Source: Candidatus Doudnabacteria bacterium
GTDB taxonomy: Bacteria; Patescibacteriota; Doudnabacteria; UBA920; 2-01-FULL-46-14
NCBI GenBank assembly: GCA_041497195.1
Contig: JBGQGB010000003.1
Coordinates: 20,260-84,259, forward strand
Direction of reading: 5' to 3'
Length of the DNA stretch: 64,000 nt
Positions 7,944-42,718 of this stretch are shown in pieces; position 1 is the first letter of the stretch; each line of letters begins with the position of its first letter. Below the pieces are notes generated by a model, which searched no databases, was not told the origin of the DNA, and saw only the letters and a list, made by a program, of their open reading frames with translations. Both the position numbers and the translations under genes were made by a program.

Positions 7944-10900
7944 TTAGGCTTCTCTAATTTCCCGGGTTCGTTTTTCCTTTATGGTTTCCCGCTCCGACAG
8001 AGTAACGAGCTCTCTGACCTCCCCCTCTTCCGAACCGATGACTTCTTCCCCGATCAAATTCACATCCAGACACAAGGATTGCAGTTCTTTGACCAACACC
8101 CGAAAAGATTCCGGCACGTTCGGGGTCTTGATCGGCTCTCCTTTCACAATTGATTCATAGGTTTTGGACCGTCCCACGACGTCATCTGATTTGATCGTCA
8201 GCATTTCTTGCAAAGTGTGCGCCGCCCCATAACCTTCCAGGGCCCAGACTTCCATTTCCCCGAACCGCTGGCCGCCGAATTGGGCTTTGCCACCGAGGGG
8301 CTGCTGGGTGATCAAAGAGTAGGGCCCGGTCGAGCGAGCATGCATTTTATCGTCAACCAAATGATGAAGCTTCATCATATAGATGTAACCGACCGTGACT
8401 TTGCCATCGAAAGATTTGCCGGCCTTGCCGTCGTAAAGCATCACTTTCCCGTCTTCCGGATAGCCGCCTTTTTTCAATTCCTGCTTAATAATTTCTTCGG
8501 TCACCCCGTCGAGAACCGGGCTGGCGACTTTGTAGCCGAGTTTGTGCGCGGCCAGGCCCAAATGGGTTTCCAGAATTTGGCCCAAATTCATACGGGAGGC
8601 CACGCCCAAAGGATTGAGAATAATATCCACCGGCGTCCCGTCCTCCATGAAAGGCATGTCTTCTATTGGGACGATCCTGGAAATGACACCTTTGTTCCCG
8701 TGCCGGCCGGCCATTTTGTCTCCTACGGAAATTTTCCGAACCACGGCCACTGAAACTTGGATGGAGCGAATCACGCCAGAAGGCAATTTGTCGCCCTTGT
8801 CTCGGGAAAATTCGCGAATATTCACGACTTTCCCGTATTCGCCGTGCGGCAGACTCAGGGACGTATCTTTCACGTCACGGGCTTTTTCCCCGAAAATTAC
8901 GCGTAACAATTTCTCTTCCGCGGTCAGATCGGTTTCGCCTTTCGGGGTAATTTTGCCGACCAGGATATCGCCGGCTTTCACCTGGGCGCCGATGCGGACC
9001 ACTCCAGTTTCGTCCAAATCCTTGAGTTTTTCCTCGCCGACATTCGGAATGTCCCGGGTCACGATCTCAGGCCCCAGCTTGGTGTCTCGCACGTCCACCT
9101 TGAAATCTTCAATGTGGATAGAACTGAACCGGTCGTCTTGTACCAGGCGGGAAGAAATAATCACCGCATCCTCGTAATTGTATCCACTCCATGACATGAA
9201 CGCGACCAACACGTTCTGGCCCAAAGCCAGCTCTCCCTGCTCAGTCGCCGGTCCGTCAGCCAGGGCCTGCCCGCGCAAAACTTTTTCCTCGCGGCGGACG
9301 ATCGGCTTTTGATTGATGCTGGTGGACGTATTGGAGCGTAAAAACTTTTTCAGGAAATATTCGCGTTTGGTGCCCTCGTCGTCGGTCACCACAATTTTTT
9401 CCCCGGTCACGGAAGTGACGGTGCCGGACGCCTCACAAAGCACGATCTGCCCGGAATCAAACGCGGCTTTTTCCTCAACACCGGTGCCCACGATTGGGGA
9501 TTGCGGCCGGATGCAAGGGACAGCCTGGCGCTGCATGTTGGAGCCCATCAAAGCGCGGTTGGCGTCATCATGCTCCAGAAAAGGAATCAGGGACGTGGTA
9601 ATCGACACAATTTGTTTGGGCGAAACATCCATATAATCAATATCCGCAGTGGAAGCGATGGACGGTTCGCTGTGAACCCGCACTGGGACCCGGTCTTTGA
9701 CGAAATATCCCTGCGCGTCGATCTCGGTATTCGCCTGGGCGATGATGTATTGTCCCTCTTCGTGCGCATCCAGATAATCAATCTGGTCGGTGATGTGGCG
9801 CCGCCCATCGGCTTCTTTGGCCACTTTTCGGTAGGGGGTTTCAATAAAACCAAATTCGTTCACGCTCGCGTAGGAAGCCAAGTGGGCCACCAGACCGATA
9901 TTCGGGCCCTCCGGCGTGGTAATCGGGCACAGCCGGCCATAGTGGGAGCGGTGCACATCGCGAACCTCGAAGCCAGCGCGCTCGCGGGACAAGCCCCCCG
10001 GTCCCATGGCCGAGAGCCGCCGCTTGTGTTCGAGCTCGGCCAAAGGATTGGTCTGATCCATGAATTGCGAAAGCTGGGACGAGGAAAAAAACTCTTGCAT
10101 CACCGCCACAATCGGGCGGACATGAATGAGCTGCGCCGGCATGACTGTCTCCAGATCAGCCAGGCTCATCCGGTCTTTGGCGATGCGGCTCATGCGCGTG
10201 AGCCCCACGCGGAATTTGGTCTGAATGAGTTCCCCCACCGAGCGCACCCGCCGATTGGCCAAATGGTCGATGTCGTCCGGCGGCTCTTGCGAATTGTTCA
10301 GGGACACAATTTCCCGAATAACCCCGATTAAATCATCTTTGGTCAAAATCCGATCCTGCCTGTCCTTGATGCGCAACCGCTGGTTGAATTTGTAGCGCCC
10401 CACTTCCGAGAGATCATATCGGTCAAAATTGAAAAACATCGCTTCGATCAGCGAGCGGGCGTTGTCAACCGTTGCCAAATCACCCGGACGGATTCTCTTA
10501 TAAACTTCCTTAAATCCTCCGTCGGAATTTTTGGAAGAATCTTTTTCCAGAGTATTCTGGATGTATTTCAAATCAGGATTGGTATCAACGTCGGCAAAAG
10601 CCGCCAAAATTTCCTCATCCGTGGACAAACCAAACACTCTCATCAGCGCCGTCACCGGGATGCGGCGTTTTCTATCAATTTTCACGCCAATCACGCCATT
10701 GAGATCAGTATCAAACTCCAGCCAGGCCCCACGATTGGGAATAATTTTGCCGCCGTAGTAGTTACGGCCTCTGGCGTAAGTAGCACTGAAGAAAGCACCT
10801 GGCGATTTGATGAGCTGGGACACGACCACGCGTTCGACGCCATTGATCACGAATGTCCCCCGGTTGGTCATCAATGGAAAATCGCCCAGATACACGTCCT

Positions 10901-11535: not shown

Positions 11536-11814
11536 TTATTTCAGTTTGGTTGATTTCTGCCAGCGTTTCAACACGTAAATCTGCTGCCACCAATATTGTC
11601 CTTGCCACAGTCCAAAACCTGCTCCGGCAATCAAAAGGATGATGCTGAAAATACTGTGGAGGGCAAACCATTGCTGCCAAGTCAGGCCAAAACCGTATCG
11701 CGCAAAATCCGCGGTCAAAAGCTGAATATAGGAAATCTCAATCATCCTGTGAATCAAAAACTGCAGAAGAATCTCTAGTGTAGTAAAGGCCACAATGTAA
11801 ATAAACTTTTTCAT
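11536..11814 (-). CDS. small predicted membrane protein (2 TM helices), hypothetical
   Basis: 92 aa with two hydrophobic segments. Overlaps the stop of the upstream dehydrogenase gene by 4 bp, implying co-transcription. Confidence 0.4.
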   Translation of the reverse strand: MKKFIYIVAFTTLEILLQFLIHRMIEISYIQLLTADFARYGFGLTWQQWFALHSIFSIILLIAGAGFGLWQGQYWWQQIYVLKRWQKSTKLK

Positions 11815-13364
11815 TTAGTAGGAAAGCGAATCGGCACATTCACGCTTGCGTCATTTTCCGGCTTTCCAGACGGGTTGTCTTTTTGCAGAATCAAAGTACC
11901 GGAGCCGCTCAGAGGAGGGGTAAAATCCAATTTTGCGGTAAATGGGACAAAATTGTCAGTCATCCAGTCGCCTTGGGCTGTCGCTATAGCATGAGCGAGC
12001 TCATGTCCTTGTTCATCCAGAAGCTTTATCGGAAAACTGCCTTCAAAAAACCAGCTGCCGCGCGCCTCCCCTGCCACAGTCAAGGGGCTTTGGACCACGT
12101 CCTGCGGCTGCGGTTGTTTGACGTGCACAAACTGTGCTGCCTCACCTTGATCATAGGTCACGCGGTAGATGACGCCGATCTTGTCGTCGGAAATATACAT
12201 GATCCCGCCCGGTTGGGTGATGATATCGACTGGCCGGCCCAGTGCACCGTCTTTGGTCAACCAGCCGGTAATAAAATCCTCAGTACCCAAATAATTTCCT
12301 TTCGCGTCGAGCTTGATGCGGATGATTTTGTAGCCGGTCGGCGTAGTTCGATTCCACGAGCCGTGATAAGCCACCAACAAATTGCCCTGGTACTCCTGCG
12401 GCCACCCCTGCTGGGGCACAAACGCTAGCCCCAAGGGGGCAGAGTGGGCTGGCAAATCTATATGCGACGGCTCTTTGCCATTGCACGGGTCCTGGATGTA
12501 AACGTTTTTGTCGAAATTGGTATCGTGGATGTTGTGGCCATAGCAAATCGGCCAGCCGTAATTACTCCCGACCTTCAAAATATTGATTTCATCCGGCGGC
12601 AAATCGTCTCCTAGATAATCCCGGCCCATCTCTGTCCCCCACATCCTTCCATCCGCCAGGCTCCAGGTAAAAAACACGGAGTTCCGAAGCCCTCCGGCGT
12701 ATTGCCGAAAATCACTGCCGTCTTTGTTCATGGAATAAATAGCCGCTCGCCGCGAATCCGCCTCATTGCAGACATTACAAGACGAGCCGGTCGAGACATA
12801 CAAGCGCCCGTCCGGCCCGAACGCGATAGTACGGGTGAAATGACCCGCGCCACTGGGCAGGGTATCAATCGTCTTTTGATCAGAAGCGAGGGCAGTGCTC
12901 TGGTCATAGGCAAAGCTCAAGATTTGGTCTGAATCAGCCACATACAGCCGGCACTGCTGCACTGCCGCATTCCCCTGGCAATCAAAGGCCAGCCCGTGCG
13001 GATTTTTCAACCCCTGCACCACAGTGATACTGCGGTCAGCCTGGTGATTGACATCCTCATCAGGGAGCGCAACCACTTTGCCCTCGGAAGTGAGGCTGAC
13101 CACCAGCCGCCCGCTCGGATCAAAGGTCATCACCCGCGCATCCGGCAGATTTTTGGCAAAGATGGAGATAGAAAAACCAGGCGGCAGGGTCAGCGGCAAC
13201 CCGGTGCTGTTGAAAACAAGACTGGCCAAACTCTGCGGCGGCGGGCTGATCACTGGCTTGACCCCGCGGACAAAGCTGACCAATTTCGGCAAATAAACAA
13301 TCGTGCCCCAAACCGCGGCCACCACCACAGCACTGCCAAACACTACGATAATGTATTTTTTCAT
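11811..13364 (-). CDS. secreted PQQ-dependent sugar dehydrogenase-like beta-propeller (SGDH family) with C-terminal Gmad2 Ig-like domain
   Basis: 517 aa. N-terminal signal/TM segment (MKKYIIVVFGSAVVVAAVWG). The body resembles soluble glucose/sorbosone dehydrogenase. The C-terminal ~100 aa (GEARGSWFFEGSFPIKLLDEQG...ATAQGDWMTDNFVPF) resembles the Gmad2 domain. Confidence 0.6.
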   Translation of the reverse strand: MKKYIIVVFGSAVVVAAVWGTIVYLPKLVSFVRGVKPVISPPPQSLASLVFNSTGLPLTLPPGFSISIFAKNLPDARVMTFDPSGRLVVSLTSEGKVVALPDEDVNHQADRSITVVQGLKNPHGLAFDCQGNAAVQQCRLYVADSDQILSFAYDQSTALASDQKTIDTLPSGAGHFTRTIAFGPDGRLYVSTGSSCNVCNEADSRRAAIYSMNKDGSDFRQYAGGLRNSVFFTWSLADGRMWGTEMGRDYLGDDLPPDEINILKVGSNYGWPICYGHNIHDTNFDKNVYIQDPCNGKEPSHIDLPAHSAPLGLAFVPQQGWPQEYQGNLLVAYHGSWNRTTPTGYKIIRIKLDAKGNYLGTEDFITGWLTKDGALGRPVDIITQPGGIMYISDDKIGVIYRVTYDQGEAAQFVHVKQPQPQDVVQSPLTVAGEARGSWFFEGSFPIKLLDEQGHELAHAIATAQGDWMTDNFVPFTAKLDFTPPLSGSGTLILQKDNPSGKPENDASVNVPIRFPTK

Positions 13365-13365
13365 G

Positions 13366-13413
13366 CTACTTACTTACAACTTATTTACTTACTCACTTAT
13401 TCACTTGATCAGC
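13366..13413. repeat. copy A of phased-octamer intergenic repeat (minus sense AAGTGAAT AAGTGAGT AAGTAAAT AAGTTGTA AGTAAGTAGC-ATG)
   Basis: 38-nt stretch 13372-13409 is identical to 14764-14801. Overlaps the stop codon of pgi and ends 2 nt before the ATG of the dehydrogenase gene. Confidence 0.8.
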
Positions 13414-14366
13414 TTTTTGAATTCCTCCACCATCGGCACCTGTTCGGTCTCAAGGCCGTAGCCTTGGCCAGTATGAAACGCGGCCCAGTCTGCCAAAATG
13501 AGAGAGGAAAAAGTCTTTTCCATTCTGCTTGCCCCCGACAGTTCAATAATATCCACTGGCAAACCGCGGTCGCGGTAGAATTTTACCGTGATGGCAAAGC
13601 GTTTCTGAATTTGTGGGTGATCGTCGGAGTCTTTCAAGAAAATAAAATGGAATTTCTCTGAAAGAGCGCGGCTGGAATCTTTGACATCAAAACCTACCAT
13701 CTCATTGTGGTTGAGTTCGGGAAAAATATTATAAAATGCCGGGATTTTCCCAGTCTCATTAAATTTTATTTTCCAGTTACAAGCAATCGGCAAGTTTCGG
13801 TCGGAAGAATATATTATTGGAACCATATTTTTGATTTTTGCGGCCAAGTCTTTGCCGGCCTGCTCCAAATCCCCTGGCTGCAAAAGTTTTGCCATTGTCG
13901 CCGATTCTTTCAGAAGGATATTTTGCTTCATGAGCTTAAGTAATGCCTGCATGCCGAAGCCGAGCGCGGAACGAGGCTGGATACCGGTATCGGGTAATCG
14001 TACGTAAGGAAAGTTGTTTGCCTGGGCAATTTCCAAAATTTTTCCGCCAACCGCGACGCAGGCAACCGCAATTCCTCTATTTTGCGCTTCTTCGAGTGCG
14101 GAAATAGTCTCTTCCGTATTTCCCGAATATGAACTGGCAATTAGCAGAGTCTTCTTTTGATCCTTCTCGGCAACAGGAGGCACCCCGTAATCAGAGTGGA
14201 TCGTAATATCCAATTGAGGATTTAGGCTTTTGATAATATCAGCGGCCAGGTGGGAACCGCCCATTCCTGCCACAATAAATTTTCGATATTTGCGCAAAGG
14301 ACCATTCTCGATTTGTGGCCGATATTTGAATTGTTTGGCAAAATCTCGGATTGCTTGATCCATCAT
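13401..14366 (-). CDS. bifunctional phosphoglucose/phosphomannose isomerase (archaeal-type SIS-domain PGI/PMI)
   Basis: 321 aa. SIS-domain motifs (GMGGSHLAADI, SYSGNTEETI), typical length for this family. Confidence 0.75.
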   Translation of the reverse strand: MMDQAIRDFAKQFKYRPQIENGPLRKYRKFIVAGMGGSHLAADIIKSLNPQLDITIHSDYGVPPVAEKDQKKTLLIASSYSGNTEETISALEEAQNRGIAVACVAVGGKILEIAQANNFPYVRLPDTGIQPRSALGFGMQALLKLMKQNILLKESATMAKLLQPGDLEQAGKDLAAKIKNMVPIIYSSDRNLPIACNWKIKFNETGKIPAFYNIFPELNHNEMVGFDVKDSSRALSEKFHFIFLKDSDDHPQIQKRFAITVKFYRDRGLPVDIIELSGASRMEKTFSSLILADWAAFHTGQGYGLETEQVPMVEEFKKLIK

Positions 14367-14404
14367 GGGGGTAGTTGTAAGTAATTAAGTAGTAAGTGGG
14401 TAAA

Positions 14405-14761
14405 TTATTTTTGAATCTTCATCCACCCGTGAATGAGCTTGCCAACCTCATCGGCCAAGCTGCTTAGTTCACCATACCTCTGTTCGTTGATATATTTCAA
14501 ATCTCGCGACAATAAAAGTTCATACTTCAACTCTTCCAAAGAACCTTCAGCGATGTTGTAAAAATGCAGCGAATCATTTTTGGTTTTTCTCTTAAACCCT
14601 TCGGCGATATTTGCAGGGATGGAAACGCTAGAGCGACGAATTTGACTAGTCAGACCGAAAATTTCGGATTTGGGAAAAGTTTCGGTGATTTCGTAAATGC
14701 CTAGAGTTAGTTCATGAGCTTTCTGCCAAGCGATTATCTCTCGAAAAGTTTTGATCAGCAT
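14405..14761 (-). CDS. four-helix-bundle protein (TIGR02436, '23S rRNA intervening-sequence protein' family)
   Basis: About 118 aa. Motifs ...IPANIAEGF...EGSLEEL... are diagnostic of this family. Likely start is the ATG at 14759-14761. Confidence 0.75.
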   Translation of the reverse strand: MLIKTFREIIAWQKAHELTLGIYEITETFPKSEIFGLTSQIRRSSVSIPANIAEGFKRKTKNDSLHFYNIAEGSLEELKYELLLSRDLKYINEQRYGELSSLADEVGKLIHGWMKIQK

Positions 14762-14762
14762 C

Positions 14763-14802
14763 AACTTACAACTTATTTACTTACTCACTTATTCACTTGA
14801 TG
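14763..14802. repeat. copy B of phased-octamer intergenic repeat
   Basis: 14764-14801 is identical to 13372-13409. Overlaps the transaldolase stop codon and abuts the start of the four-helix-bundle gene. Confidence 0.8.
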
Positions 14803-15641
14803 AGCGCATTCCAATCCTGGGAAAATTTTTCGATTCCCTTCTCGGTCAACTGGTGGATGAGGTCAAACTTGGTCCAATTTTCATTGAGATCCAAAGTTTC
14901 ATAGGGGATGGCTTTGAGGCCATCTGGCCCATATTTGAAACCCATTGTGGGAATTTCGAAACCGGCCTCGACCCATTCTTTGATGGTCTTGAGAGGGGCT
15001 GTGATGATGTCTGAGCCCAAAGCGAGAGCGTAGAGGAAATGATTGAGATTTCTGACACTGGCAGTGAGGACCGCGACATGCCCATCGCCCTGTTTGTACA
15101 TGGCTAATATATTCTTTACCGCATCCATCCCATTCTGCCCGATATCATCCAGCCGGCCAACAAAGGGCGACACATACACCTGGCCTTTTACGGCTCCTCT
15201 GGTGGCTGCATACACTGCCGCGGCCTGCGCTTGGGAAAAACACAAAGTCATATTGACCCTCATCCCTTCTTTGACTGCAACCTCGGCAGCCTTGAGGCCA
15301 GCAGTGGTAGTCGGAAATTTGATATGCGCATTGGGAATCCATTCGAAAAATTCCAAGCCCTGGCCGAGCATTGCTTCAGTCGTGGTTTTGTCGTCCGCGT
15401 AGACTTCTATGGAGACCGAGCCCTCGGGAATGAGAGCGGACACCTCTCCCACTACATTGCGGTAAAACTCAAACACCTCGGTCTGCGAAAACTTTTTGCC
15501 CTTAGTCTGGGGATTTTTCGCAATCAGCGACGGATTGGTAGTCTGGCCATCGAGAAAACCCAGAAGCTTGATAGCTTCTCTGGTCTCATCCGGATCGCCA
15601 CTATCCAGGAATATTCGTGTTTTTAAATTATTAGGTCGCAT
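14793..15641 (-). CDS. tal: transaldolase
   Basis: 282 aa. FLDSGDPDE...GQTTNPSLI motifs of the transaldolase / fructose-6-phosphate aldolase family. Confidence 0.85.
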   Translation of the reverse strand: MRPNNLKTRIFLDSGDPDETREAIKLLGFLDGQTTNPSLIAKNPQTKGKKFSQTEVFEFYRNVVGEVSALIPEGSVSIEVYADDKTTTEAMLGQGLEFFEWIPNAHIKFPTTTAGLKAAEVAVKEGMRVNMTLCFSQAQAAAVYAATRGAVKGQVYVSPFVGRLDDIGQNGMDAVKNILAMYKQGDGHVAVLTASVRNLNHFLYALALGSDIITAPLKTIKEWVEAGFEIPTMGFKYGPDGLKAIPYETLDLNENWTKFDLIHQLTEKGIEKFSQDWNALIK

Positions 15642-15675
15642 ATGGTCCTGTTAAAGAAGACACTCATTAAGAATA

Positions 15676-15704
15676 CCAAAAAATCGCCCCTTCGGCGATT
15701 TTTG
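15676..15704. terminator. rho-independent terminator downstream of the VRR-NUC/HNH operon (minus strand); bidirectional-looking
   Basis: Hairpin AATCGCC-CCTTC-GGCGATT with an A-run on the 5' side and a T-run on the 3' side. Confidence 0.5.
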
Positions 15705-15740
15705 TGTGGGTTTCGTCGTGAAGGATTCTACATAAACCAT

Positions 15741-16259
15741 TTAAGAAATATCCCATTCGACCAGCAAAAAATTGTCTGGACCCAATCCGACCTCCAAACA
15801 GGCTTCTAGCCAAATAAACTGGCTATCTCTAATACTATCCTTATTCTTCCGCTTGCACTCGACAAATAAAAAATTGTCCCCTTTCCAAAGGAATACATCC
15901 CAGCATCCTTTGAAATCAGTCCGAGCGGTGATTGTCTTAAAAAACTTTGCTGGTATTTCCGGAAGCTCGTGATTTTCCTTGGCCCCCTCTGGCATCTTAG
16001 TGCGGAAGCACTTGCGATAACTGTCTACCCACACACCATCCCATCCCTCTTTTTTTAGAGTATTGAGGACCACCAGCTCCGCAAAAAGCGGGCGACCGTC
16101 ATATTCTAAAATATGCTTGTTACCATAGCTGTCTTTTACAGCATCGCCTTTCCATAAAGAAAACAGGACTTCGGCCTTTGGAATTACAACAACCTTTCCT
16201 GAGGGCAAAACAAATGTTTCCGAGGTTTTTGGTTTCCCACTTGTTAGCGATAATACCAA
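15741..16259 (-). CDS. PD-(D/E)xK nuclease, VRR-NUC-like domain protein
   Basis: 172 aa. C-terminal GCWDVFLWKGDNFLFVECKRKN...QFIWLEA fits the VRR-NUC pattern (G.PD....fvE.K....Q..w). The N-terminal ~110 aa domain is of unknown function. Local GC is lower than the flanks. Confidence 0.55.
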   Translation of the reverse strand: MVLSLTSGKPKTSETFVLPSGKVVVIPKAEVLFSLWKGDAVKDSYGNKHILEYDGRPLFAELVVLNTLKKEGWDGVWVDSYRKCFRTKMPEGAKENHELPEIPAKFFKTITARTDFKGCWDVFLWKGDNFLFVECKRKNKDSIRDSQFIWLEACLEVGLGPDNFLLVEWDIS

Positions 16260-16636
16260 TTGGGTAAATTGCTCTTTCTCCGGCTTTTATTTTGTTCCAA
16301 CCTCGCCTGGTAAAGTTTCCTTATTTCTCGTCCCAAGGAAGTCCGGCGTTCGGATTCGCGCAAGGCGATAACTCCGAACTGGAAAAGTTTTCTTATCTTT
16401 CTGCCTTTAAGATTCCACTTTAAACGATTACATATCAAGCAGATTGGGAGAAAGTTTATTACTTTGTCTTTTCCTCCACGTGATACTGAAACTACATGGT
16501 CAACGTGCCATCGCCCTTTTTCAGCTCTAACGGCATCAAAGACGAGAACTCGCCCGCAAACATGGCATCTCCCGCCGGTTTTTGACCATACTTTCTGTTT
16601 TATTGGAACGGTAATTGTTTTTCTTCTTTTGGACAT
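16244..16636 (-). CDS. HNH endonuclease
   Basis: 130 aa. CHVCG...HVDHVVSVSRGG...N...CLICN motif arrangement of HNH (zinc-binding cysteine pairs plus H-N-(H/N)), with a basic C-terminal tail. Overlaps the downstream nuclease gene by 16 bp. Confidence 0.75.
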   Translation of the reverse strand: MSKRRKTITVPIKQKVWSKTGGRCHVCGRVLVFDAVRAEKGRWHVDHVVSVSRGGKDKVINFLPICLICNRLKWNLKGRKIRKLFQFGVIALRESERRTSLGREIRKLYQARLEQNKSRRKSNLPNWYYR

Positions 16637-16745
16637 CTTTGATAAAGAATCCTATTTTAGCCGACACATGCTTTAGTCAATATAGGATATGCCTTGGCGG
16701 GGTCCCTTGTGGAACGATGTTTGAACGGCTTTTTGTGTTAAAAAA

Positions 16746-17666
16746 TTATTTTGCTTCCTGGAAAACTTTATAAAAATGCTGATAGTTTTTGGCAATCTCC
16801 GCAGTTGCTTGCTCGTCAGTTGATTTACCATCTCGCAATGCTACCAACGGCTCCCAAAAAATCGTGCGGCCGATCGCAAACCCGACCAGGCCTTTCGCTT
16901 TGGCAGCTGCGCGCAGCCATACTTCCACTTGGGCGGCGTCTGCCCCGCGGCCGAGGATCACCGCGGAAACATTGTCCCGGCCACCGGTCCTGGCTTGCGC
17001 CACTACCTCTTCATAATGCTTCGTGCTCTCCAGCCCCTCAATCTTCCAGATGTCCGGCTCGACACTATCGGCCTGAAGCTCGGAAATCATTTTGACCATG
17101 AGTTGGGGGCGGACTTCCAAATCATATTTCTTCGCATCCCCTCCAGCTGCCTGGAGTTGTTCAGGTGTCGCTGGAATGAGCGGTTCGATCAAAAATTTGT
17201 AGCCATGCTCATGACAATAATTGCTGGGGATCTTCAGTCGCCCCCGTTGCCGAGCGTTCATGCCCTGATCTGCTTCGGGATTGTAGCGGATCAGGGCTTT
17301 GACAAAAGTCGGGTGGTAGCGCTCAATATGTACTGCAAACTCGTCCCCGTACTCAAAATCAAACTCATCCTGGCCGCTTTTTTCCGAAGACATGCAAAAA
17401 ATATAGCCCTCCTCACGAGCTTCCCGCAGAATGGCATCCCCAAACTGTTCATCAATGAGGATCGCCGCCTCGCCTTTGGGAATACTAGCAGCCACCGCTT
17501 GTTTGAAACCGGCAAAAATCACTTGCTTGAACTGCGAAATTTGTTCGGTCTGTGCAATAGTCGGCTGGCCGCTGATGCCAAACATTTTTTTCATGAACGA
17601 ACCGCGGTGATCAAAAGCGAGGATGAAAAGAGGCTTTGTGTAGCCAGGCTTGGAATATTCAATCAT
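16746..17666 (-). CDS. LacD/DhnA-like class I aldolase (tagatose/fructose-bisphosphate aldolase family)
   Basis: 306 aa. N-terminal LAFDHRGS motif resembles the LacD LAFDQRGA block. Sits in a glycolysis/pentose-phosphate gene context. Confidence 0.55.
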   Translation of the reverse strand: MIEYSKPGYTKPLFILAFDHRGSFMKKMFGISGQPTIAQTEQISQFKQVIFAGFKQAVAASIPKGEAAILIDEQFGDAILREAREEGYIFCMSSEKSGQDEFDFEYGDEFAVHIERYHPTFVKALIRYNPEADQGMNARQRGRLKIPSNYCHEHGYKFLIEPLIPATPEQLQAAGGDAKKYDLEVRPQLMVKMISELQADSVEPDIWKIEGLESTKHYEEVVAQARTGGRDNVSAVILGRGADAAQVEVWLRAAAKAKGLVGFAIGRTIFWEPLVALRDGKSTDEQATAEIAKNYQHFYKVFQEAK

Positions 17667-17687
17667 GGATTATCAATTATATATTTA

Positions 17688-17730
17688 CGCTTACAACTTA
17701 TTTACTTACTCACTTACTACTAATGACTAC
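17688..17730. repeat. copy C of phased-octamer intergenic repeat (26-nt core identical to copies A/B)
   Basis: 17691-17716 TTACAACTTATTTACTTACTCACTTA matches 13374-13399. Lies between the glpX stop and the aldolase start. Confidence 0.7.
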
Positions 17731-18704
17731 TTCTTACTGGTTTGATGATGATAGGTCGTAATGTAGCGCAGAGTCCCGGAACTGCCACGTAAGACCATCG
17801 AATGAGTAATGATATGTGCTTGCCCGCCCGAGACGGATCCTCCTCCGGAGGAAAATCTCACCCCTTGCAGGAGCGGCCCGTCGATCACACCTGTGGCAGT
17901 GAAAGTGAGCTGTTTGCCGTGAGCCAGATCCTCGGCCCGAAAAACTTTCTTGAGGTTTTTCGTACCACTCTGGCGGATCGCTTTCTCGTCGTCTTTGCTG
18001 CGCGGAGCAAATTGGCAGAGAATCTGCCCGCCCAGGAGTTTCACCGGCGCTGCAGCGAGGACTGCCTCAGTACTGCCGCCGATGCCCATCAAGAGATCAA
18101 TCCCGGAATCAGGCAAACAGGTGGCAATGGCAGCGGCCACGTCGCCGTCAGTGATGAGTCGCACCCGCGCTCCGGCCTGACGAATCTTCTGAATCAGGCC
18201 TTTGTGCCGCTCTCTGTCCAAAACCACCACTACTATATCTTTGACTGGCTTACCGAGCGCCCTAGCTACATTATATATATTAACCTTGACTGGCGCTTCC
18301 AGCTTGATCACTTTGGCAGCCCGCGGTCCGGCCGCGATTTTGTTCATATAGGTATCCGGGGCAGAGAGCAGGCTGCCGCGCGGCCCGGCCACTATCACTG
18401 ACAAAGCATTGTAGCGGCCATATGCCACACTATCAGTGGCCTCGAGCGGATCAACAGCCAGATCCATAGTGGGGCCGTTTCCTTTCCCGACTTTTTCGCC
18501 AGTATATAGCTCCGGCGCTTCATCTTTCGCTCCCTCGCCAATCACCACTCGGCCGGAAAACTCGATTTGGTTGAAGCGCGCCCGCATCTCATCCACTGCC
18601 GCCCCGTCGGCTTTGTGTTTGTCCCCGCGGCCAACCCATCTGGCGGCCGCGATTGCGGCCGCTTCGGTGACCCGGACAAATTCGAGAGCTAAATTGCGAT
18701 CCAT
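17727..18704 (-). CDS. glpX: class II fructose-1,6-bisphosphatase
   Basis: 325 aa with conserved GlpX blocks throughout. Confidence 0.88.
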   Translation of the reverse strand: MDRNLALEFVRVTEAAAIAAARWVGRGDKHKADGAAVDEMRARFNQIEFSGRVVIGEGAKDEAPELYTGEKVGKGNGPTMDLAVDPLEATDSVAYGRYNALSVIVAGPRGSLLSAPDTYMNKIAAGPRAAKVIKLEAPVKVNIYNVARALGKPVKDIVVVVLDRERHKGLIQKIRQAGARVRLITDGDVAAAIATCLPDSGIDLLMGIGGSTEAVLAAAPVKLLGGQILCQFAPRSKDDEKAIRQSGTKNLKKVFRAEDLAHGKQLTFTATGVIDGPLLQGVRFSSGGGSVSGGQAHIITHSMVLRGSSGTLRYITTYHHQTSKK

Positions 18705-18705
18705 A

Positions 18706-19344
18706 TCATTTGGTTGCCATGACTATCCATCTATCATATCTCAAAAATTTTTCTATAGCGACTTTTCTATACGATTTGAAAAGACTCGCTAATTCTGCCC
18801 GCTTGTATAATGAATGAATCAGCCCTGTTTCGGGACCGCTGGTAGCTACGGTCGCCCCGTCGCGCAAATATTTCCACACTTCATCTGCTGACTTCCAGTC
18901 TTTACGGCTGACATAAAATGGAAAAGAAATAAAAATCTTCCCGCCGCTAATAAGGCTCGCGTAAATTCTATTTAATAGAGACTTGATTTTAGATTTCTCG
19001 CCATGGTGAATCGTATTTACCGAGTAGATAAAATCATAACGATTTTTTGGAACTCGATAGTTAAACATATTGGCTACCTGCAAATCAGCATCTTTACCTA
19101 AAATTTTTCGGGATAACTTGAATGCTGCCTTGCTATAGTCAATGCCAGCAGTTTCAAACCCTCGTGATTGCAGCCATTTTAAGTATCTCCCGTCCCCGAA
19201 ACCGATATCAAGTGTGCTGCGAAATTTGAAATCTGAATGTAGCACGAAACTTTTAAACAGTCGCGAAACTGGTCTGCTTAAGGTCGCGTACGCGGGACCT
19301 CCTGTTGAGTAGCGAGCATAAATTTTTTCCCATTCTTTACTCAT
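18706..19344 (-). CDS. class I SAM-dependent methyltransferase
   Basis: 212 aa. LDIGFGDGRY motif I. Overlaps the tkt stop by 8 bp. Confidence 0.7.
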   Translation of the reverse strand: MSKEWEKIYARYSTGGPAYATLSRPVSRLFKSFVLHSDFKFRSTLDIGFGDGRYLKWLQSRGFETAGIDYSKAAFKLSRKILGKDADLQVANMFNYRVPKNRYDFIYSVNTIHHGEKSKIKSLLNRIYASLISGGKIFISFPFYVSRKDWKSADEVWKYLRDGATVATSGPETGLIHSLYKRAELASLFKSYRKVAIEKFLRYDRWIVMATK

Positions 19345-21196
19345 GCAAAAACTTTTTTACGACTCTGATTATGGCTCCCCGCGAAATCTCCTCATACTCC
19401 AAAAGTTCTGCGGGTTTGCCTGAGCGCGGCATTTTGCGCACTGCTAAACTGAATACTTGATACTTACCACTTAATGCTGACCTGACCGCTTCTCCGATGC
19501 CGCCTTCGGGATAATGATCCTCGACTGTAATAATACTGCCGGTGTCTTTGGCTGCTTGTAGCAAAGTCTTGCGATCAATTGGCTTGATACTATAGAGATC
19601 AATCACCCGGATGAAGATGCCTTGTTTTTTCAGCTCCTCATACGCAGCCAACGCTTCGTGCAAGGTAACTCCGGCCCCGACTACTGTCACGACGTCTTTG
19701 CGGCTTTGCCTGAGAACTTTACTGCCACCAATCGGGAACTCCTGCCGCGACGAGTACAAAACCGGAGTCGTCATTCTGGTAGTGCGGATATAGACGATGC
19801 CTTTGCGTTTGGCGGCTGCTTCCACGAGCTTTTCCGTGGAAACTGCGTCTGACGGATACAAAACCACACCCCCCTGGATGGTGCGAAACATAGCCAAATC
19901 CTCCAGCCCCATTTGCGAAGCGCCATCCTCTCCTATAGACACGCCAGCGTGGGAGCCCACGAATTTGATATTCGCTCCTGAATACTGGCTCATCCGGATC
20001 TGGTCATAGCCTCTGGCAAAAAAGGCGGCAAAGGTCGAGACAAACGGGATATTGCCGCGGCGCGACAGGCCGAGAGCGCTACCTACCATATTCTGCTCGG
20101 CAATGTACATTTCAAAAAACCTGTCCGGGTATTTCGCTTTGAAAATTTCCGCATAAGTCGAGTTGCTCACCTCGGCATCCAGGACCACCATGTTGGGAAA
20201 CTTGGGAAAAATCCGTACCAAGGCATTGCCGTAGGCTTTGCGGGTGGCGACCCCGTCTCCGAGTTTGTACTGAATCTTCGCAGACGAATAATGCGTCGGC
20301 GCCTTGTCCGCCTTCGTCCGCCCAAGGCGGACTACAGCGGACTGCGGCCTGGCTAATTCCCCTCGAAAAGACTTGTTAACTTTCCCCAGTTCGCGAAGCG
20401 CTTGAATTAATTCTTCTTTGCTCAAGGCCTTGCCATGCCAGTTGTCTTTGTTTTCGATAAACGAGATGCCTTTGCCTTTGAGTGTTTTGGCGATAATCAT
20501 CACCGGCCGGTCTTTGACTCTCGCAGCTTGCTCGTATGCTTTCAAAATCTCCTTGAAATTGTGGCCGTTGATGACCATCGTCTTCCAGCCAAACGCAGCA
20601 ATGCGTTTTTGGTAAGCCTGCAAATCATGCCCATACATAGTGGGGCCGCGCTGGCCCAACCGATTGACATCCAAAATTCCTACGAGATTGTCGAGTTTGT
20701 AGTGTGCTGCCAGCTGCATGGCTTCCCACTGCGACCCTTCGGCCATTTCGCTGTCACCGAGTAACACATAAGTCCGATACGGAAGCTTGTCGAGATATTT
20801 GGCATTGAGCGCCATACCCACCCCAATAGAAAGGCCCTGGCCGAGCGAACCAGTAGCCGCCTCGGTATAGGGAAACCTCATGGTCGGGTGTCCCTCGAGT
20901 TGGCTGCCGAACTGCCGGAGGGTGAGCATTTCTTTTTCACTGACTTTGCCTGCAGCTGCGTAAATAGAATAGAAAAGCGGGGACGCGTGGCCTTTGGAAA
21001 AAATCAGGCGGTCGTTGTTAGGGTGATTGGGGCGCTGTAAATCAAAACGAAACACCTTGCCAAATAGCAGGGCAGTCATCAAATCAGCAGCAGATAGGGA
21101 CGAGGTCGGGTGCCCGGAACCGGCTCGGGTCGTAGAAATCAGACTGTAGTAGCGGATGAGTCTGGCAAGTTCTTGGAGTTTTTTGAGATCGGCCAT
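19337..21196 (-). CDS. tkt: transketolase
   Basis: 619 aa. Thiamine-diphosphate-binding N-terminal domain (GSGHPTSSLS), pyrimidine-binding domain and C-terminal domain. Confidence 0.93.
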   Translation of the reverse strand: MADLKKLQELARLIRYYSLISTTRAGSGHPTSSLSAADLMTALLFGKVFRFDLQRPNHPNNDRLIFSKGHASPLFYSIYAAAGKVSEKEMLTLRQFGSQLEGHPTMRFPYTEAATGSLGQGLSIGVGMALNAKYLDKLPYRTYVLLGDSEMAEGSQWEAMQLAAHYKLDNLVGILDVNRLGQRGPTMYGHDLQAYQKRIAAFGWKTMVINGHNFKEILKAYEQAARVKDRPVMIIAKTLKGKGISFIENKDNWHGKALSKEELIQALRELGKVNKSFRGELARPQSAVVRLGRTKADKAPTHYSSAKIQYKLGDGVATRKAYGNALVRIFPKFPNMVVLDAEVSNSTYAEIFKAKYPDRFFEMYIAEQNMVGSALGLSRRGNIPFVSTFAAFFARGYDQIRMSQYSGANIKFVGSHAGVSIGEDGASQMGLEDLAMFRTIQGGVVLYPSDAVSTEKLVEAAAKRKGIVYIRTTRMTTPVLYSSRQEFPIGGSKVLRQSRKDVVTVVGAGVTLHEALAAYEELKKQGIFIRVIDLYSIKPIDRKTLLQAAKDTGSIITVEDHYPEGGIGEAVRSALSGKYQVFSLAVRKMPRSGKPAELLEYEEISRGAIIRVVKKFLHE

Positions 21197-23963: not shown

Positions 23964-25217
23964 TTAAACTGTTTGGGTTTTTGTTTCTTGAGGTGCCTCA
24001 ACCGGATTCTCAGCAGCAGGAGCAGAGGGAATTGCAGCAGCGGGCTCCACAGGTTTGGCAGTGAGCGCTTTGACCGAGAGGCCCAAGCGGTGCTCTTGGG
24101 GCTCAATGGAAATGATTTTGAATTCCCGCTCTTCGCCTTCTTTCAAAACCACTGACGGGTCAGCAATTTTCTCATAGGACAACTCGCCCAAATGTGCCAA
24201 ACCGTGAATATCCGCATCCAACTCGATAAAAGCGCCGAAAGGAGCAAGTTTTAAAACCTTGCCTTTGACCACCTGGCCAATTTGATATTTCTTGACCGCG
24301 TCTTCCCAGGGATCGCGCTGGAGGCGCTTGATAGACAGACTGATGCGGTCATTATCAATGGCGATAATCTGTGCTTTGACTTTGTCGCCGACTTTGACGA
24401 TATTTTTCGGATCCTCAATGCGCTGCCAGGCGAGTTCGGAAATGTGGACCAGGCCCTCGAGTTCATCATCAAACTTTACAAATGCGCCAAAATCCACCAC
24501 ACCGGTGATTTCGCCTTCCACGACCGTCCCGATGGTGAGCTTGGTGATTTTTTTCATGAGCTCATCTTCCATGACAGCCCGTTCGGAAACGATCAGTTTC
24601 TCCCCGTCCTGTTCGGCGGTAATAATCCGGACGTCAAAATCCAGACCCACGAACCCGCGCAGCACGCTCAGGATCTTGTTTTTATCGCCGTCCTCAACCC
24701 GCGGATAATGCGACGGCGCTAGTTGCGAAACTGGTAAAAAGCCCAAGACGCTGTTGATTTTGACCATCAAGCCGCCCTTGTTGGCTTCTAAGATTTTGGT
24801 GCGAACGGTTTCTTTGCTCTGAAGTTTTTCGTGCAAAGCCTGCCAGACTCGCTCCTGGCCAGCCTTCCGGAAAGATAATTCGATGTTGCCGTCTTTGTTC
24901 TCGATTTCGATGACCGAAGCGTACACCGGGGCGCCGACTTTCAGAGAAGACAAAATTTGTTCGTCGTCATACAGTTCGCGGCCGCGCACCACGCCGATGC
25001 CGACCCCGTCCACGTCCACATAGACCTCGTTTTTCCCCACGCTTAAAATACTGCCCTGAATCACATCCCCCTCTTGCAGAACGTGCAATTTGGTCGAGTG
25101 GACAGCTAGCAAATCATTCATTGATTGGATATCTTCAGCCATAGATAGGTCGCTTCCCGGGGAACCCCTGCTCTGCCAATTCCCTTCCCTCAGCTTCGTG
25201 TCCGTATAGAAATGCAA
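23964..25217 (-). CDS. rpsA: 30S ribosomal protein S1
   Basis: 417 aa made of repeated S1 domains. Confidence 0.88.
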   Translation of the reverse strand: MHFYTDTKLREGNWQSRGSPGSDLSMAEDIQSMNDLLAVHSTKLHVLQEGDVIQGSILSVGKNEVYVDVDGVGIGVVRGRELYDDEQILSSLKVGAPVYASVIEIENKDGNIELSFRKAGQERVWQALHEKLQSKETVRTKILEANKGGLMVKINSVLGFLPVSQLAPSHYPRVEDGDKNKILSVLRGFVGLDFDVRIITAEQDGEKLIVSERAVMEDELMKKITKLTIGTVVEGEITGVVDFGAFVKFDDELEGLVHISELAWQRIEDPKNIVKVGDKVKAQIIAIDNDRISLSIKRLQRDPWEDAVKKYQIGQVVKGKVLKLAPFGAFIELDADIHGLAHLGELSYEKIADPSVVLKEGEEREFKIISIEPQEHRLGLSVKALTAKPVEPAAAIPSAPAAENPVEAPQETKTQTV

Positions 25218-36880: not shown

Positions 36881-37341
36881 ACTTGGGGCTTGGGCTTGAT
36901 GAGGATGCGTCGCTCAGGTTCTTCCCCCACGCTTTCCGTAACAATATCAGGAAGCTTGGAAATCTCTGCGTGGACGACGCGCCGCTCATATGAAGCCATA
37001 GGTTTTAGCAAAAGGCTCTCCTTGGTGTCACGGACTCGCGCCGCCGCTTGCCTGGCCAGCTCGCGAAGAAACGCTTCGCGGCTTTTTTTGTATCCTTCTA
37101 CATCCACGACAAAATGAATCTGCTCAGACAATTGCTTGTGCACTAAGAGGCGGGTCAAGTACTGCAACGCCCCCAGATTGACTCCATGTTGTCCAATCAG
37201 CATCGCAGAATCTACAGTCTTCAAATTGAAAACAAGGGTGTCTTCCGCGGTTTCTGTTTCTATGTCAGCACTCATCCCCATCTGATTTAGAATATTTTTC
37301 AAAATATTTTTGACAATGTCTTGCTGTTCCGCAGTGATCAT
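36877..37341 (-). CDS. jag: Jag/KhpB RNA-binding protein (KH + R3H domains)
   Basis: Motif QHGVNLGALQYL...ERRVVHAEI. Start set at M20 (ATGA overlap with the yidC stop). Canonical position next to yidC. Confidence 0.8.
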   Translation of the reverse strand: MITAEQQDIVKNILKNILNQMGMSADIETETAEDTLVFNLKTVDSAMLIGQHGVNLGALQYLTRLLVHKQLSEQIHFVVDVEGYKKSREAFLRELARQAAARVRDTKESLLLKPMASYERRVVHAEISKLPDIVTESVGEEPERRILIKPKPQV

Positions 37342-38036: not shown

Positions 38037-38042
38037 AAAAAA

Positions 38043-38285
38043 TTAGATTTGTTCGACCGGATCCGAACCCCCGGCAGAAAAAGGATTACATCTCAAAATT
38101 CTCCAGACTGCTTTTAACGACCCTTTCGCTGCCCCGTGCTTTAGAAGCGACAATCGAGCATACTCGGAACAAGACGGATAAAAACGGCAATATCCGTAAG
38201 GGTAGCGTTGTTTCCCCCGAGGGCTATGATCTGGGGAAAATAACTTTTGATAGAAATCGATGAGTCCGAGTAAAGTCCTAGTCAT
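38043..38285 (-). CDS. yidD: membrane protein insertion efficiency factor YidD
   Basis: 80 aa. Motif CRFYPSCSEYA. Confidence 0.85.
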   Translation of the reverse strand: MTRTLLGLIDFYQKLFSPDHSPRGKQRYPYGYCRFYPSCSEYARLSLLKHGAAKGSLKAVWRILRCNPFSAGGSDPVEQI

Positions 38286-38631: not shown

Positions 38632-38636
38632 GTTTT

Positions 38637-38771
38637 CTAGATGGTTAAACGCACCCGGCCCTTTTGCCGCCTCGCTTTTAATACACGTCTTCCGGTACGC
38701 GTTTTCATACGTTTCCTAAACCCATGCCTGCGTGCCCGGTGTTTTCTTTTAGGTTGGTAAGTCCTTTTCAT
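38637..38771 (-). CDS. rpmH: 50S ribosomal protein L34
   Basis: Not in the ORF track because it is under 60 aa. Minus-strand translation is [44 protein letters not shown] (44 aa), the classic L34 sequence. Confidence 0.85.
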
Positions 38772-41619: not shown

Positions 41620-41622
41620 GCG

Positions 41623-42711: not shown

Positions 42712-42718
42712 TAAAATC

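Follow-up and report, generated by a model that had tools for sequence, protein, structure and literature searches.

We analysed a short repeat that occurs three times in a carbohydrate gene string of a Candidatus Doudnabacteria genome, within a stretch of 64,000 nucleotides referred to here as the window. We consider it probable (roughly 0.7) that this repeat is the arm sequence of a gene cassette resembling the intervening sequences (IVSs) of 23S rRNA, inserted between sugar-metabolism genes and accompanied by two arm-only copies at neighbouring junctions. The cassette comprises one repeat copy (copy B, the 5' arm), an ORF encoding a 118-aa four-helix-bundle (4HB) protein, and, at the far end, a 3' arm in inverted orientation. 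Copies A and C belong to the arm family of copy B but occur as arms alone, at two further junctions of this pentose-phosphate/gluconeogenesis gene string.

As the original prediction had stated, every copy occupies a gap between co-directional minus-strand genes; the setting is one of tightly packed co-directional gene strings, not of promoter regions, and the three copies span 4.4 kb. Copy A fills the 36-nt spacer (13365-13400, minus strand) from the pgi stop codon (13401-13403) to the ATG of a glucose/sorbosone-dehydrogenase gene (13362-13364); copy B is the 31-nt spacer ATAAGTGAGTAAGTAAATAAGTTGTAAGTTG (14762-14792, minus strand) from the tal stop codon (14793-14795) to the 4HB ATG (14759-14761); and copy C lies in the 60-nt spacer (17667-17726, minus strand) from the glpX stop codon (17727-17729) to the ATG of a DUF2090/DeoC aldolase gene (17664-17666). 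Read in the minus-strand sense, they share a 26-nt core, AAGTGAGTAAGTAAATAAGTTGTAAG, which occurs exactly three times in the window (13373-13398, 14765-14790 and 17690-17715, the last having been placed one base off originally), with no additional match at up to three mismatches and none expected from shuffled sequences. The 38-nt identity of copies A and B (13372-13409 = 14764-14801) and the proposed octamer phasing also held, Tandem Repeats Finder reporting period-8 arrays of 5.1, 3.5 and 2.9 units in A, B and C, respectively. The spacer of copy B is devoid of C and carries stop codons in all three frames; folded alone, copy A is unstructured and copy C is less structured than its shuffles (z=+2.0). 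The same three copies were recovered in independent JGI assemblies (L001 and L002), and the Logan k-mer contigs of four samples end 21 nt past the tal stop codon, as is expected where a repeat is genuine.

Upstream of the cassette lies the transaldolase gene tal (14793-15641, minus strand; Pfam PF00923), ending in ...DWNALIK-TGA, and downstream the bifunctional phosphoglucose/phosphomannose isomerase gene pgi (13401-14366, minus strand; PF10432), ending in ...EEFKKLIK-TGA. The suggestion that the repeat supplies these stop codons stands only in the trivial sense that TGA falls inside the identical run. As C-termini, ...DWNALIK* and ...EEFKKLIK* are common and ancestral in the transaldolase and PGI families, respectively, and the shared ATCAAGTGA (I-K-stop) is ancestral rather than repeat-derived. 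Likewise, the Shine-Dalgarno sequence is indeed missing at the copies, yet this does not set them apart, as it is absent from nearly all genes of the window.

The fourth copy, overlooked in the original prediction, is inverted and degenerate. It forms the 38-nt spacer TTTACCCACTTACTACTTAATTACTTACAACTACCCCC (14367-14404, minus strand), devoid of G, between the 4HB stop codon and the pgi ATG. The ORF enclosed by the two arms (14405-14761, minus strand) belongs to the 23S_rRNA_IVP/S23p/bAvd-like family: it matches Pfam PF05635, "23S rRNA intervening-sequence protein" (E=1.1e-39), the structures PDB 2GSC (E=8e-18) and 2RLD, and Pfam bAvd. Homologs at 60-74% identity are all 118 aa long, and a pN of 0.16-0.23 against a pS of 0.77-0.96, with synonymous sites saturated, implies purifying selection on the ORF; together, the substitution pattern and the fixed length are features indicating a functional cargo.

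The 3' arm forms inverted repeats with copy A over 26 nt (85% complementary), with copy B over 21 nt (90%) and with copy C over 20 nt (90%) and 16 nt (94%); these hold ranks 1, 2, 5 and 19 in a list of the 25 longest in an 11-kb region. AAGT/ACTT low-complexity sequences pair readily, however, and some G-rich windows match the score of the element copies against this arm. Within the 461-nt cassette region copy B pairs with 14367-14404 in both the MFE and the centroid fold; the fold as a whole is no more stable than shuffled sequences (z -0.65), and only the arm pairing stands out. The arm duplex, at -26.9 kcal/mol, was equalled by none of 300 shuffles, and in nine of 11 Patescibacteria cassettes it surpassed all 300 (z -4.8 to -8.6). 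Complementary flanks of this kind are peculiar to 4HB genes, ten of which were compared with 177 other genes of the same loci (Mann-Whitney p=1.3e-6).

The same design recurs around 4HB ORFs elsewhere. Inverted repeats abutting start and stop codons bracket 18 of the 21 such ORFs examined in Patescibacteria, Cyanobacteria and Bacteroidota, the remaining three (L142b, weak by duplex; L149; L155) having no detectable arms. The arms are composed of tandem 7-8-nt units set directly against the start and stop codons, and their sequence varies by locus while complementarity is kept (AAGT/ACTT, CAGT/ACTG, CATTGTTT/AAACAATG, CAGGAGT/ACTCCTG, GGAGATAAG/CTTATCTCC, AAGGTTT/AAACCTT). In other genomes the cassette occupies the junctions tkt-glpX, LOG-tal, pilin-pilin, cmr2-cmr3 and cas6-cas4 as well as one at a PPIase gene, and its host operons (pentose-phosphate, pilin, PPIase, CRISPR cmr/cas) are unrelated.

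In the relatives L013 and L145, which are without the cassette, the tal/pgi genes (by 4 nt) and the pgi/dehydrogenase genes overlap and spacers are absent, which makes the window spacers insertions relative to these compact relatives. The pgi-dehydrogenase junction holds an AAGT/AAGC-rich spacer of 33 nt in L134 and a spacer of 39 nt in L011, and the glpX-aldolase junction of L134 also holds an AAGT-rich spacer; both arm-only positions are thus occupied in this second Doudnabacteria genome. Across 20 kb of L134, the 3' arm of that genome pairs best with precisely three spacers, those of types B, A and C (z -6.4, -5.2 and -4.1, respectively), and L140 has a like topology, namely arm, 4HB ORF, inverted arm, next gene and arm (z -9.8). 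ORF-less hairpins of these arm types are present in L140 (10735-10840) and in L010, which carries an exact 22-mer of the window element. A 5' remnant of the 4HB ORF in L011 is identical to the window at 62 of 66 nt, whereas the flanking tal, pgi and GSDH (dehydrogenase) genes are only 66-70% identical (60/66 in the best tal window), an excess that may hint at cassette mobility. No genome examined has a 4HB ORF at the pgi-GSDH or glpX-aldolase junction, and the deep positional conservation of the arm-only spacers, together with their similarity within a genome, could reflect a function of their own. The earlier suggestion of an insertion-prone repeat family targeting gene boundaries therefore comes close to the evidence, the family being that of cassette arms and the boundaries those of unrelated operons.

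We infer that in the polycistronic transcript the arms would base-pair to give a stem of roughly 30 bp, looping out the inserted 4HB ORF and bringing the tal stop codon beside the pgi start. By analogy with the intervening sequences of 23S rRNA, this stem may be a substrate of RNase III, for which the window contains no gene. The cassette would be, or would once have been, mobile, with gene junctions as its landing sites, and the arm-only copies would be remnants or miniature derivatives in a putative decay series from full cassette through ORF-less hairpin to single arm, possibly kept alike by gene conversion within the genome.

Other explanations were weighed against this one. It is unlikely, though compatible with a cassette origin, that the sense copies serve as Shine-Dalgarno-independent translation-start or post-transcriptional regulator sites. 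They would then be unstructured leaders devoid of C to which ribosomal protein S1, a cold-shock protein or some other factor binds, and pairing with the 3' arm would switch them off. The forward orientation of all copies, which end 2-23 nt ahead of a start codon, their lack of structure when folded alone and the near absence of Shine-Dalgarno sequences agree with such a role, as do an S1 protein encoded in the window (23964-25217) and the retention of the spacer positions in L134 and L011 despite the compactness of CPR genomes. Close analogues are the TAACTGA heptamer repeats, for which this role was proposed (PMC4679880), and the Nostoc heptamer repeats that abut start codons (bioRxiv 10.1101/2022.06.06.494920). 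Yet no spacer precedes the orthologs of L013 and L145, whose starts overlap the gene before them, most window genes start without such a repeat, the binding factor is hypothetical, and the inverted arm and the 4HB association are left unexplained. The arm-only copies may nonetheless have some part in translation initiation that does without a Shine-Dalgarno sequence. We regard as similarly doubtful the view that the arms are DNA-level terminal inverted repeats for a recombinase or transposase acting in trans, with the arm-only copies as target or half-sites and the RNA stem incidental. The motif AAGTTGTAAGT / ACTTACAACTT is kept in the arms of cassettes whose ORFs have saturated synonymous sites, which suggests sequence-specific recognition beyond pairing alone; the variety of occupied junctions and the L011 remnant, younger than its flanking genes, also fit. 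The sense-strand RNA duplex is favoured over the antisense one, through G-U pairs, in 12 of 14 cassettes, but this preference is weak (Wilcoxon p=0.04) and the window's own cassette runs opposite, its antisense duplex being equal or better, so that the arms could instead act at the DNA level. Against this stand the lack of any transposase or recombinase within or adjoining cassettes in the gene tables of their loci, the absence of visible target-site duplications, and the solved precedent of the rRNA IVS, which acts at the RNA level (PMC4990558).

A transcription-factor operator or promoter element co-regulating a sugar regulon is very improbable, notwithstanding the clustering of the three copies in one carbohydrate gene string and the presence next to copy C of a TATAAT (17676-17681, 9 nt ahead of the aldolase ATG), to which the copy adds a TTGTAA -35-like hexamer. 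Arms of the same type border 4HB ORFs beside a PPIase gene and pilin genes, outside sugar clusters, so the originally suggested sugar-regulon operator or translation element finds no support; moreover, copies A and B lie so close to the start codon that no promoter would fit in between, and no convincing one overlaps them, the same operon exists in relatives without spacers, the 8-nt phasing differs from the helical repeat of DNA, and an adjacent regulator gene is absent. Hardly credible at all is an origin as independent TAAG-type slippage arrays, or as the assembly artefact considered at the outset, with no biological unity. AAGT-phased arrays are admittedly common, a degenerate pattern giving more than 120 matches, mostly (TAAG)n microsatellites, across all phyla among species-representative genomes; this reading is nevertheless already contradicted by the exact, non-periodic 26-mer and the 38-mer, with none expected by chance, by the independent assemblies, and by a complementary fourth copy whose position coincides with the opposite end of the 4HB ORF.

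Several known systems share features with the 4HB cassette. Its protein is of the same fold family as Avd, the accessory protein of diversity-generating retroelements (PMC10053308), but neither a reverse transcriptase nor a template/variable repeat pair lies near the window cassette. Like MITE, REP and BIME repeats, the arm family provides short non-coding repeats at gene junctions and ORF-less hairpins; copies A and C, however, are single arms, each lacking an inverted counterpart of its own, and show no fold, with no target-site duplication seen and no RAYT or transposase detected. Integron gene cassettes are likewise small promoterless ORFs inserted co-directionally in a transcribed array and delimited by imperfect inverted repeats (attC) whose sequence varies while pairing is kept. 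In contrast to them, neither the window nor the surroundings of the cassettes yielded an integrase or attI, the repeats flank the ORF on both sides instead of forming one 3' site as attC does, and the cargo is always of one protein family.

The closest parallel is the Coxiella 23S IVS, in which an S23p ORF is borne on a 28-bp, RNase III-cut stem of terminal inverted repeats and is preceded, just upstream of its start, by two or three tandem heptamers, depending on the strain, and one degenerate copy (PMC4990558). Both elements have a PF05635 four-helix-bundle ORF in the loop of a stem, here a predicted one, formed by abutting terminal inverted repeats of about 28 bp, short tandem repeats of variable copy number (7 nt there, 8 nt here) before the ORF, and no good ribosome-binding site, and both are regarded as selfish elements that spread horizontally; in CPR bacteria, 23S_rRNA_IVP ORFs are also known from rRNA insertions (PMC11270868). 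The window element differs in lying between protein-coding operon genes rather than in helix 45 or 25 of 23S rRNA, in having arm-only copies at neighbouring junctions, and in the strong purifying selection on its ORF, that of Coxiella being in decay and probably untranslated; excision by RNase III, shown in Coxiella, would be expected here by analogy. The arms also resemble the direct TAACTGA heptamer repeats known from Beggiatoaceae, Cyanobacteria and Bacteroidetes (MacGregor 2015, PMC4679880), most of which stop 1 nt short of a start codon, some running into the 3' end of the preceding ORF, at positions where ribosome-binding sites are rare. A further resemblance is to the heptamers that Nostoc carries at its start codons (bioRxiv 10.1101/2022.06.06.494920). 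Common to all are forward-oriented tandem 7-8-nt units in intergenic spacers, whole-unit indels and a patchy phylogenetic distribution suggesting horizontal spread; the window unit is 8 nt long and imperfect, with three copies in 64 kb, but one of its forms, TAAGTGA, is a single base from TAACTGA. Neither 4HB genes nor inverted partners come up in the heptamer-repeat papers (a text search of PMC4679880 for four-helix, S23 and intervening sequence returned 0 hits), and we hypothesize that the heptamer start-codon repeats are linked to 4HB cassettes.

The repeat copies lie within a string of co-directional minus-strand genes that runs from tkt (19337-21196) through a methyltransferase gene, glpX (17727-18704), a DUF2090/DeoC aldolase gene (16746-17666), an HNH ORF followed by a 172-aa ORF, tal (14793-15641), a four-helix-bundle (4HB) ORF (14405-14761) and pgi (13401-14366) to a glucose/sorbosone dehydrogenase gene (GSDH; 11811-13364). 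Copies A (13365-13400, between pgi and GSDH), B (14762-14792, between tal and the 4HB ORF) and C (17667-17726, between glpX and the aldolase gene) make up wholly or mostly the short stop-to-ATG spacers at their junctions, A and B ending 2 nt and C 23 nt before the ATG. Tandem Repeats Finder described all three as period-8 arrays of 2.9-5.1 imperfect units with 75-86% matches. A run of 38 nt is identical between copies A and B, and the 26-nt core AAGTGAGTAAGTAAATAAGTTGTAAG has exactly three matches in the window, none further at up to 3 mismatches and none in shuffled sequences. The same copies recur in independent assemblies, and Logan contigs are interrupted at copy B, in keeping with a true repeat; the repeat is thus no assembly artefact. 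Core count, spacer fit and independent assemblies bear out the original prediction of a three-copy repeat at gene junctions, to which a fourth, inverted copy is now added.

Some particulars of that prediction did not survive. The repeat was thought to supply the ATCAAGTGA (I-K-stop) shared by tal and pgi; ...DWNALIK and ...EEFKKLIx prove to be usual, ancestral C-termini among the best 120 homologs of the respective proteins, which rules out a repeat-derived LIK-stop in both families. The missing Shine-Dalgarno sequence, taken to be special to repeat-adjacent genes, is a trait of almost every gene in the window. A TATAAT box stands 6-9 nt ahead of the ATG in many window genes (for example at 25376, 32774, 51663, 61761 and 17666), which suggests that leaderless or near-leaderless mRNAs are widespread. 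At 14/18 positions, the end of copy A is like the sequence AAGTCGTAACAAGGTAGC, which we take to be the conserved 16S rRNA 3' region; by rough estimate this likeness is at chance level once all possible alignments are allowed for, and it was discarded. An AAGT-rich stretch at 19433-19494, within the 3' part of tkt, occurs at the same place in tkt of two related loci (L141 and L142) and appears to reflect a conserved peptide and no copy of the element.

A scan for AAGT-dense stretches revealed the fourth copy on the opposite strand at 14367-14404, where it takes up exactly the whole 4HB-pgi spacer, from stop to start codon. Read in gene sense it is TTTACCCACTTACTACTTAATTACTTACAACTACCCCC, which is G-free, copy B being C-free, and the two form an inverted repeat (21 nt, 90%). 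Copies A (26 nt, 85%) and C (20 nt, 90%) are complementary to the inverted copy as well; in a list of the 25 longest inverted repeats of the 11-kb region, the pairs that it forms hold ranks 1, 2, 5 and 19. Copy B was paired with it in both the MFE and the centroid folds of a 461-nt transcript segment, the overall stability of which was not above that of shuffles. The duplex of the two arms (14762-14792/14367-14404) reached -26.9 kcal/mol, a value matched by 0/300 shuffles, and at its outer end the final tal codons are predicted to pair with the region of the pgi AUG. Folded alone, copies A, B and C did no better than shuffles (z -0.04, +1.09 and +2.03, respectively). Rfam recognized only three tRNAs and no rRNA in the window, and held no family for the element at either the gathering or a relaxed threshold.

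The protein encoded between these arms belongs to PF05635, a family named "23S rRNA intervening-sequence protein" (E=1.1e-39; 135.3 bits against a curated cut-off of 33.8; residues 9-113 of 119), and matches PDB entry 2GSC (E=8e-18). Its ORF is under purifying selection, with a length fixed at 118 aa, and no further 4HB gene was found in the window. To our knowledge the 4HB family is very common and without assigned function, its sole described genomic habit being the rRNA intervening sequence (IVS). We consider it probable, at about 0.7, that the repeats are, in anatomy and family, the arms of an IVS-like 4HB cassette together with arm-only derivatives. The basis of this reading is the anatomy itself, the complementarity of the arms, its specificity for 4HB genes, the insertion relative to compact relatives and the purifying selection on the ORF; the stem and its processing are what we infer from them.

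Inverted-repeat arms enclose the 4HB ORF in 18/21 cassettes examined. When the degenerate octamer pattern was searched in one genome per species, the matches were mostly (TAAG)n microsatellites from all phyla, and among 120 loci picked by the pattern an adjacent 4HB gene occurred only in a Saccharibacteria MAG (L099), in which the end of a PPIase gene is followed by AAGTTGTAAGTGAGTAAGTGAATAAGTTGTAAGT and the ATG of a close 4HB homolog, with ACTTACAACTTACTTACTTACAACTTACTTACTT after the stop of that ORF. Contexts were then fetched for 4HB homologs at 60-74% identity. These placed the cassette between tal and pgi in another member of the Doudnabacteria (L134) and in Uhrbacteria (L136), between tkt and glpX at three loci (L141, L142 and L143), with a second L142 copy between LOG and tal, and between pilin genes at two more (L140 and L144). 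In Patescibacteria, a gapless search found inverted repeats of 20-44 nt adjoining the start and stop codons in 10/11 ORFs, and the arm duplex energies were better than all 300 shuffles in 9/11; with 177 other genes from these loci as the comparison, flank complementarity is specific to 4HB genes (p=1.3e-6). The same design was present at 8/10 4HB genes of cyanobacterial and Riemerella plasmids. The arms are always built of tandem 7-8-nt units, the unit itself varying (AAGTGART, CAGTAGT, CATTGTTT, CAGGAGT, TCAGAAT, GGAGATAAG, AAGGTTT); that units differ while the arms of one cassette are still complementary is covariation at the level of the whole arm. Arms were judged by per-locus duplex statistics with controls, as indels in unit number make covariance-alignment columns unreliable. 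Cassettes of the AAGT group conserve the motif AAGTTGTAAGT / ACTTACAACTT despite saturated synonymous sites of the ORFs. In a non-exhaustive search of the literature, no account was found of 4HB cassettes with flanking inverted repeats outside rRNA.

Two of the plasmid cassettes with flanking inverted repeats lie in CRISPR operons, one between cmr2 and cmr3 of Picosynechococcus (L148, 1501-1857) and one between cas6 and cas4 of Anabaena sp. 90 (L154, 401-769). 23S_rRNA_IVP ORFs have been listed among cas-associated genes without a cassette interpretation (PMC3936711), a listing for which such cassettes may account.

Comparison with cassette-free relatives argues that the element was inserted. 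In L013 and L145, tal and pgi overlap by 4 nt and neither a 4HB gene nor an AAGT spacer is present; in L145, pgi and GSDH overlap by 26 nt and glpX and FBA by 11 nt. A third relative (L011), the tal of which is 71% identical to that of the window, retains the 5' arm in shortened form and ~70 nt from the beginning of the 4HB ORF, followed by an unrelated 117-aa ORF. This remnant is identical to the window at 62/66 nt, against 66-70% for the surrounding genes and 60/66 for the best 66-nt stretch of tal; because it is more alike than its flanking genes, the cassette sequence looks younger than the divergence of the hosts, a hint of transfer that comes from a single small region. The cassette is an insertion and is probably mobile. 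Integration of a circular [4HB-pgi] unit between copies A and B as direct repeats was also considered and was dropped, since pgi is the ancestral occupant of this place in the cassette-free relatives.

The neighborhood shows other rearrangements. At 15679-16636, the HNH-endonuclease ORF (16244-16636) overlaps the 172-aa ORF without Pfam match (15741-16259), the two forming a joint insertion between the aldolase gene and tal that is followed by a terminator-like hairpin (15703-15679). Other cargo occupies this spot elsewhere, namely HicAB and a methyltransferase in L134 and an N6/N4 methyltransferase in L011, and L145 has only a Ubie-type methyltransferase gene there, with all junctions overlapping; the site looks like a variable insertion hotspot. 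In L134 the initial 109 nt of tal occur twice (8425-8533 and 9039-9147, 91% identity), on either side of an inserted UPF0150/HicA toxin-antitoxin pair, the insertion of which looks to have made this long duplication. In L143, at 9624-10357, a 3'-end remnant of tkt, called as a 'glpX' fragment, lies directly upstream of the 4HB cassette, with the intact tkt ~800 nt further upstream and a 234-aa ORF in between, and the cassette seems to have retained a piece of its former upstream neighbor. The pgi-to-cyclase spacer of the Uhrbacteria locus (L136, 11368-11549) consists of CCCCCTC.../GAGGGGG palindromic repeats, which are a different intergenic repeat family.

Apart from the sugar genes, the window holds a replication-origin neighborhood at 37338-43009. 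Here yidC, yidD and rnpA on the minus strand face dnaA (38963-40327, plus strand), which is accompanied on its own strand by dnaN, recF and a DciA-domain ORF. The cumulative GC skew has its minimum near 40-42 kb, a DnaA-box-like site TATCCACA lies near 38842, and the dnaA-dnaN spacer (40328-40524) is dense in TTCCCC/CCCAC runs.

Arm-only spacers recur outside the window. L134 has AAGT/AAGC-rich 33-nt spacers at its glpX-DUF2090 and pgi-GSDH junctions, and L011 has one at pgi-GSDH. As with copies A, B and C in the window, spacers are more alike within a genome than between genomes: in L134 copy A resembles copy C, and in L011 copies A and B have GTCGCAAG in common where the window has GTTGTAAG, a pattern compatible with gene conversion or with co-evolution toward a shared partner. 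When pairing partners for the 3' arm of L134 were ranked over 20 kb, the B-, A- and C-type spacers took precisely the top three places. The top partner in L140 is an arm that directly follows the next gene downstream, an arrangement that matches the B-4HB-arm-pgi-A topology of the window. The exact 22-mer of the element had 0 matches in species-representative genomes (one per species), 0 in viral contigs and 4 in JGI metagenomes, in other organisms, of which a rhizosphere contig (L010) is the informative one. At 620-710 it carries an ORF-less hairpin (-30.8 kcal/mol; 0/200 shuffles as good), the 5' arm of which holds the 22-mer; ORF-less hairpins of both arm types were found in L140 and L010. 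The L010 hairpin lies upstream of a divergent ORF with a presumably gyrB-like N-terminus, as recognized by eye. These forms would fit a decay series from full cassette through ORF-less hairpin to single arm, and tentatively, at somewhat less than even odds, copies A and C may be the footprints of decayed cassettes. The arm-only copies may also have a role in their own right, either in starting translation or in offering the 3' arm an alternative partner for pairing.

The original prediction had offered a shared operator of a sugar regulon or a repeat prone to insert at gene boundaries. In favor of the operator, the promoter scan yields a weak -35/-10 pair at copy C; the scan for promoters and terminators gave nothing convincing at copies A or B, and the same arm type stands beside 4HB genes in PPIase and pilin contexts, which leaves the operator unsupported and rejects one confined to promoter regions. 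Nor is the sugar cluster the common denominator, cassettes being found at pilin, PPIase and CRISPR junctions too. The second option came close, in that insertion at junctions stands, the repeats being better identified as cassette arms. A live rival is that these arms act at the DNA level. Sense duplexes were somewhat more stable and richer in G-U than antisense ones in 12/14 cassettes (p=0.04), but since this advantage is modest and the window's own cassette is an exception to it, a DNA-level role has to be kept alongside pairing in RNA.

Under the cassette reading, the arms would pair in the operon transcript into a stem of ~30 bp, the base of which would juxtapose the upstream stop and the downstream start while looping out the inserted ORF. 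RNase III might then cut the stem, as in the Coxiella IVS; by that analogy, RNase III-type processing is possible, although we would not put it quite at even chances. The 64-kb window itself contains no gene for RNase III. A wider and, in our judgment, unlikely proposal is that 4HB cassettes are widespread 'operon introns', mobile ORFs with RNase III stem arms. The stem would make insertion between translationally coupled genes tolerable by the same trick as inside rRNA, their decay products, ORF-less hairpins and single arms, would have given rise to the still unexplained 7-8-nt tandem repeats that lie a short way ahead of start codons (STRR, TAACTGA) in Cyanobacteria, Bacteroidetes, Beggiatoaceae and CPR, the conserved 4HB protein binding its own arms.

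An ORF-in-a-stem design thus occurs at ordinary operon junctions in at least three phyla, with its cargo under purifying selection and arm-only or hairpin derivatives nearby. If the cassette reading is true, the 4HB family would be a junction-seeking cassette instead of an rRNA oddity, and this would explain why 4HB genes occur in operons for CRISPR, pili and central metabolism, a setting from which a functional link has been concluded. The reading would further offer a testable origin for tandem repeats of heptamers and octamers at start codons, no mechanism of spread having been evident in their 2015 description (PMC4679880). Such repeats in compact CPR genomes would also break short-read assemblies at gene junctions.

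Several known systems can be set beside the element. Unlike MITE or REP-like elements, copies A, B and C carry no hairpin of their own, and unlike integron cassettes, they are accompanied by no integrase or recombinase domain in the window ORFs or the gene tables of related loci. With regard to diversity-generating retroelements, the window contains no RVT domain and, the element aside, no pair of long direct repeats. Closer are the TAACTGA heptamer repeats, which end just before start codons and the origin and spread of which were called unexplained in a paper that makes no mention of 4HB genes (PMC4679880). The arm-only copies resemble them in their forward orientation, in ending a few nt before a start codon and in lacking a ribosome-binding site, but have an imperfect unit period of 8 where the TAACTGA/STRR type has 7. 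The closest system is the ORF-containing 23S rRNA IVS, which shares the protein family, the terminal-inverted-repeat stem and the tandem repeats before the start. In Coxiella, a 28-bp stem is cut by RNase III and tandem heptamers precede the S23p start (PMC4990558), and 23S_rRNA_IVP ORFs are known in rRNA insertions of CPR (PMC11270868). Since the window element lies between tal and pgi and not, as defines the rRNA IVS class, in a 23S or 16S rRNA helix, it is no member of that class; the cassette is a variant of the IVS design in mRNA operons.
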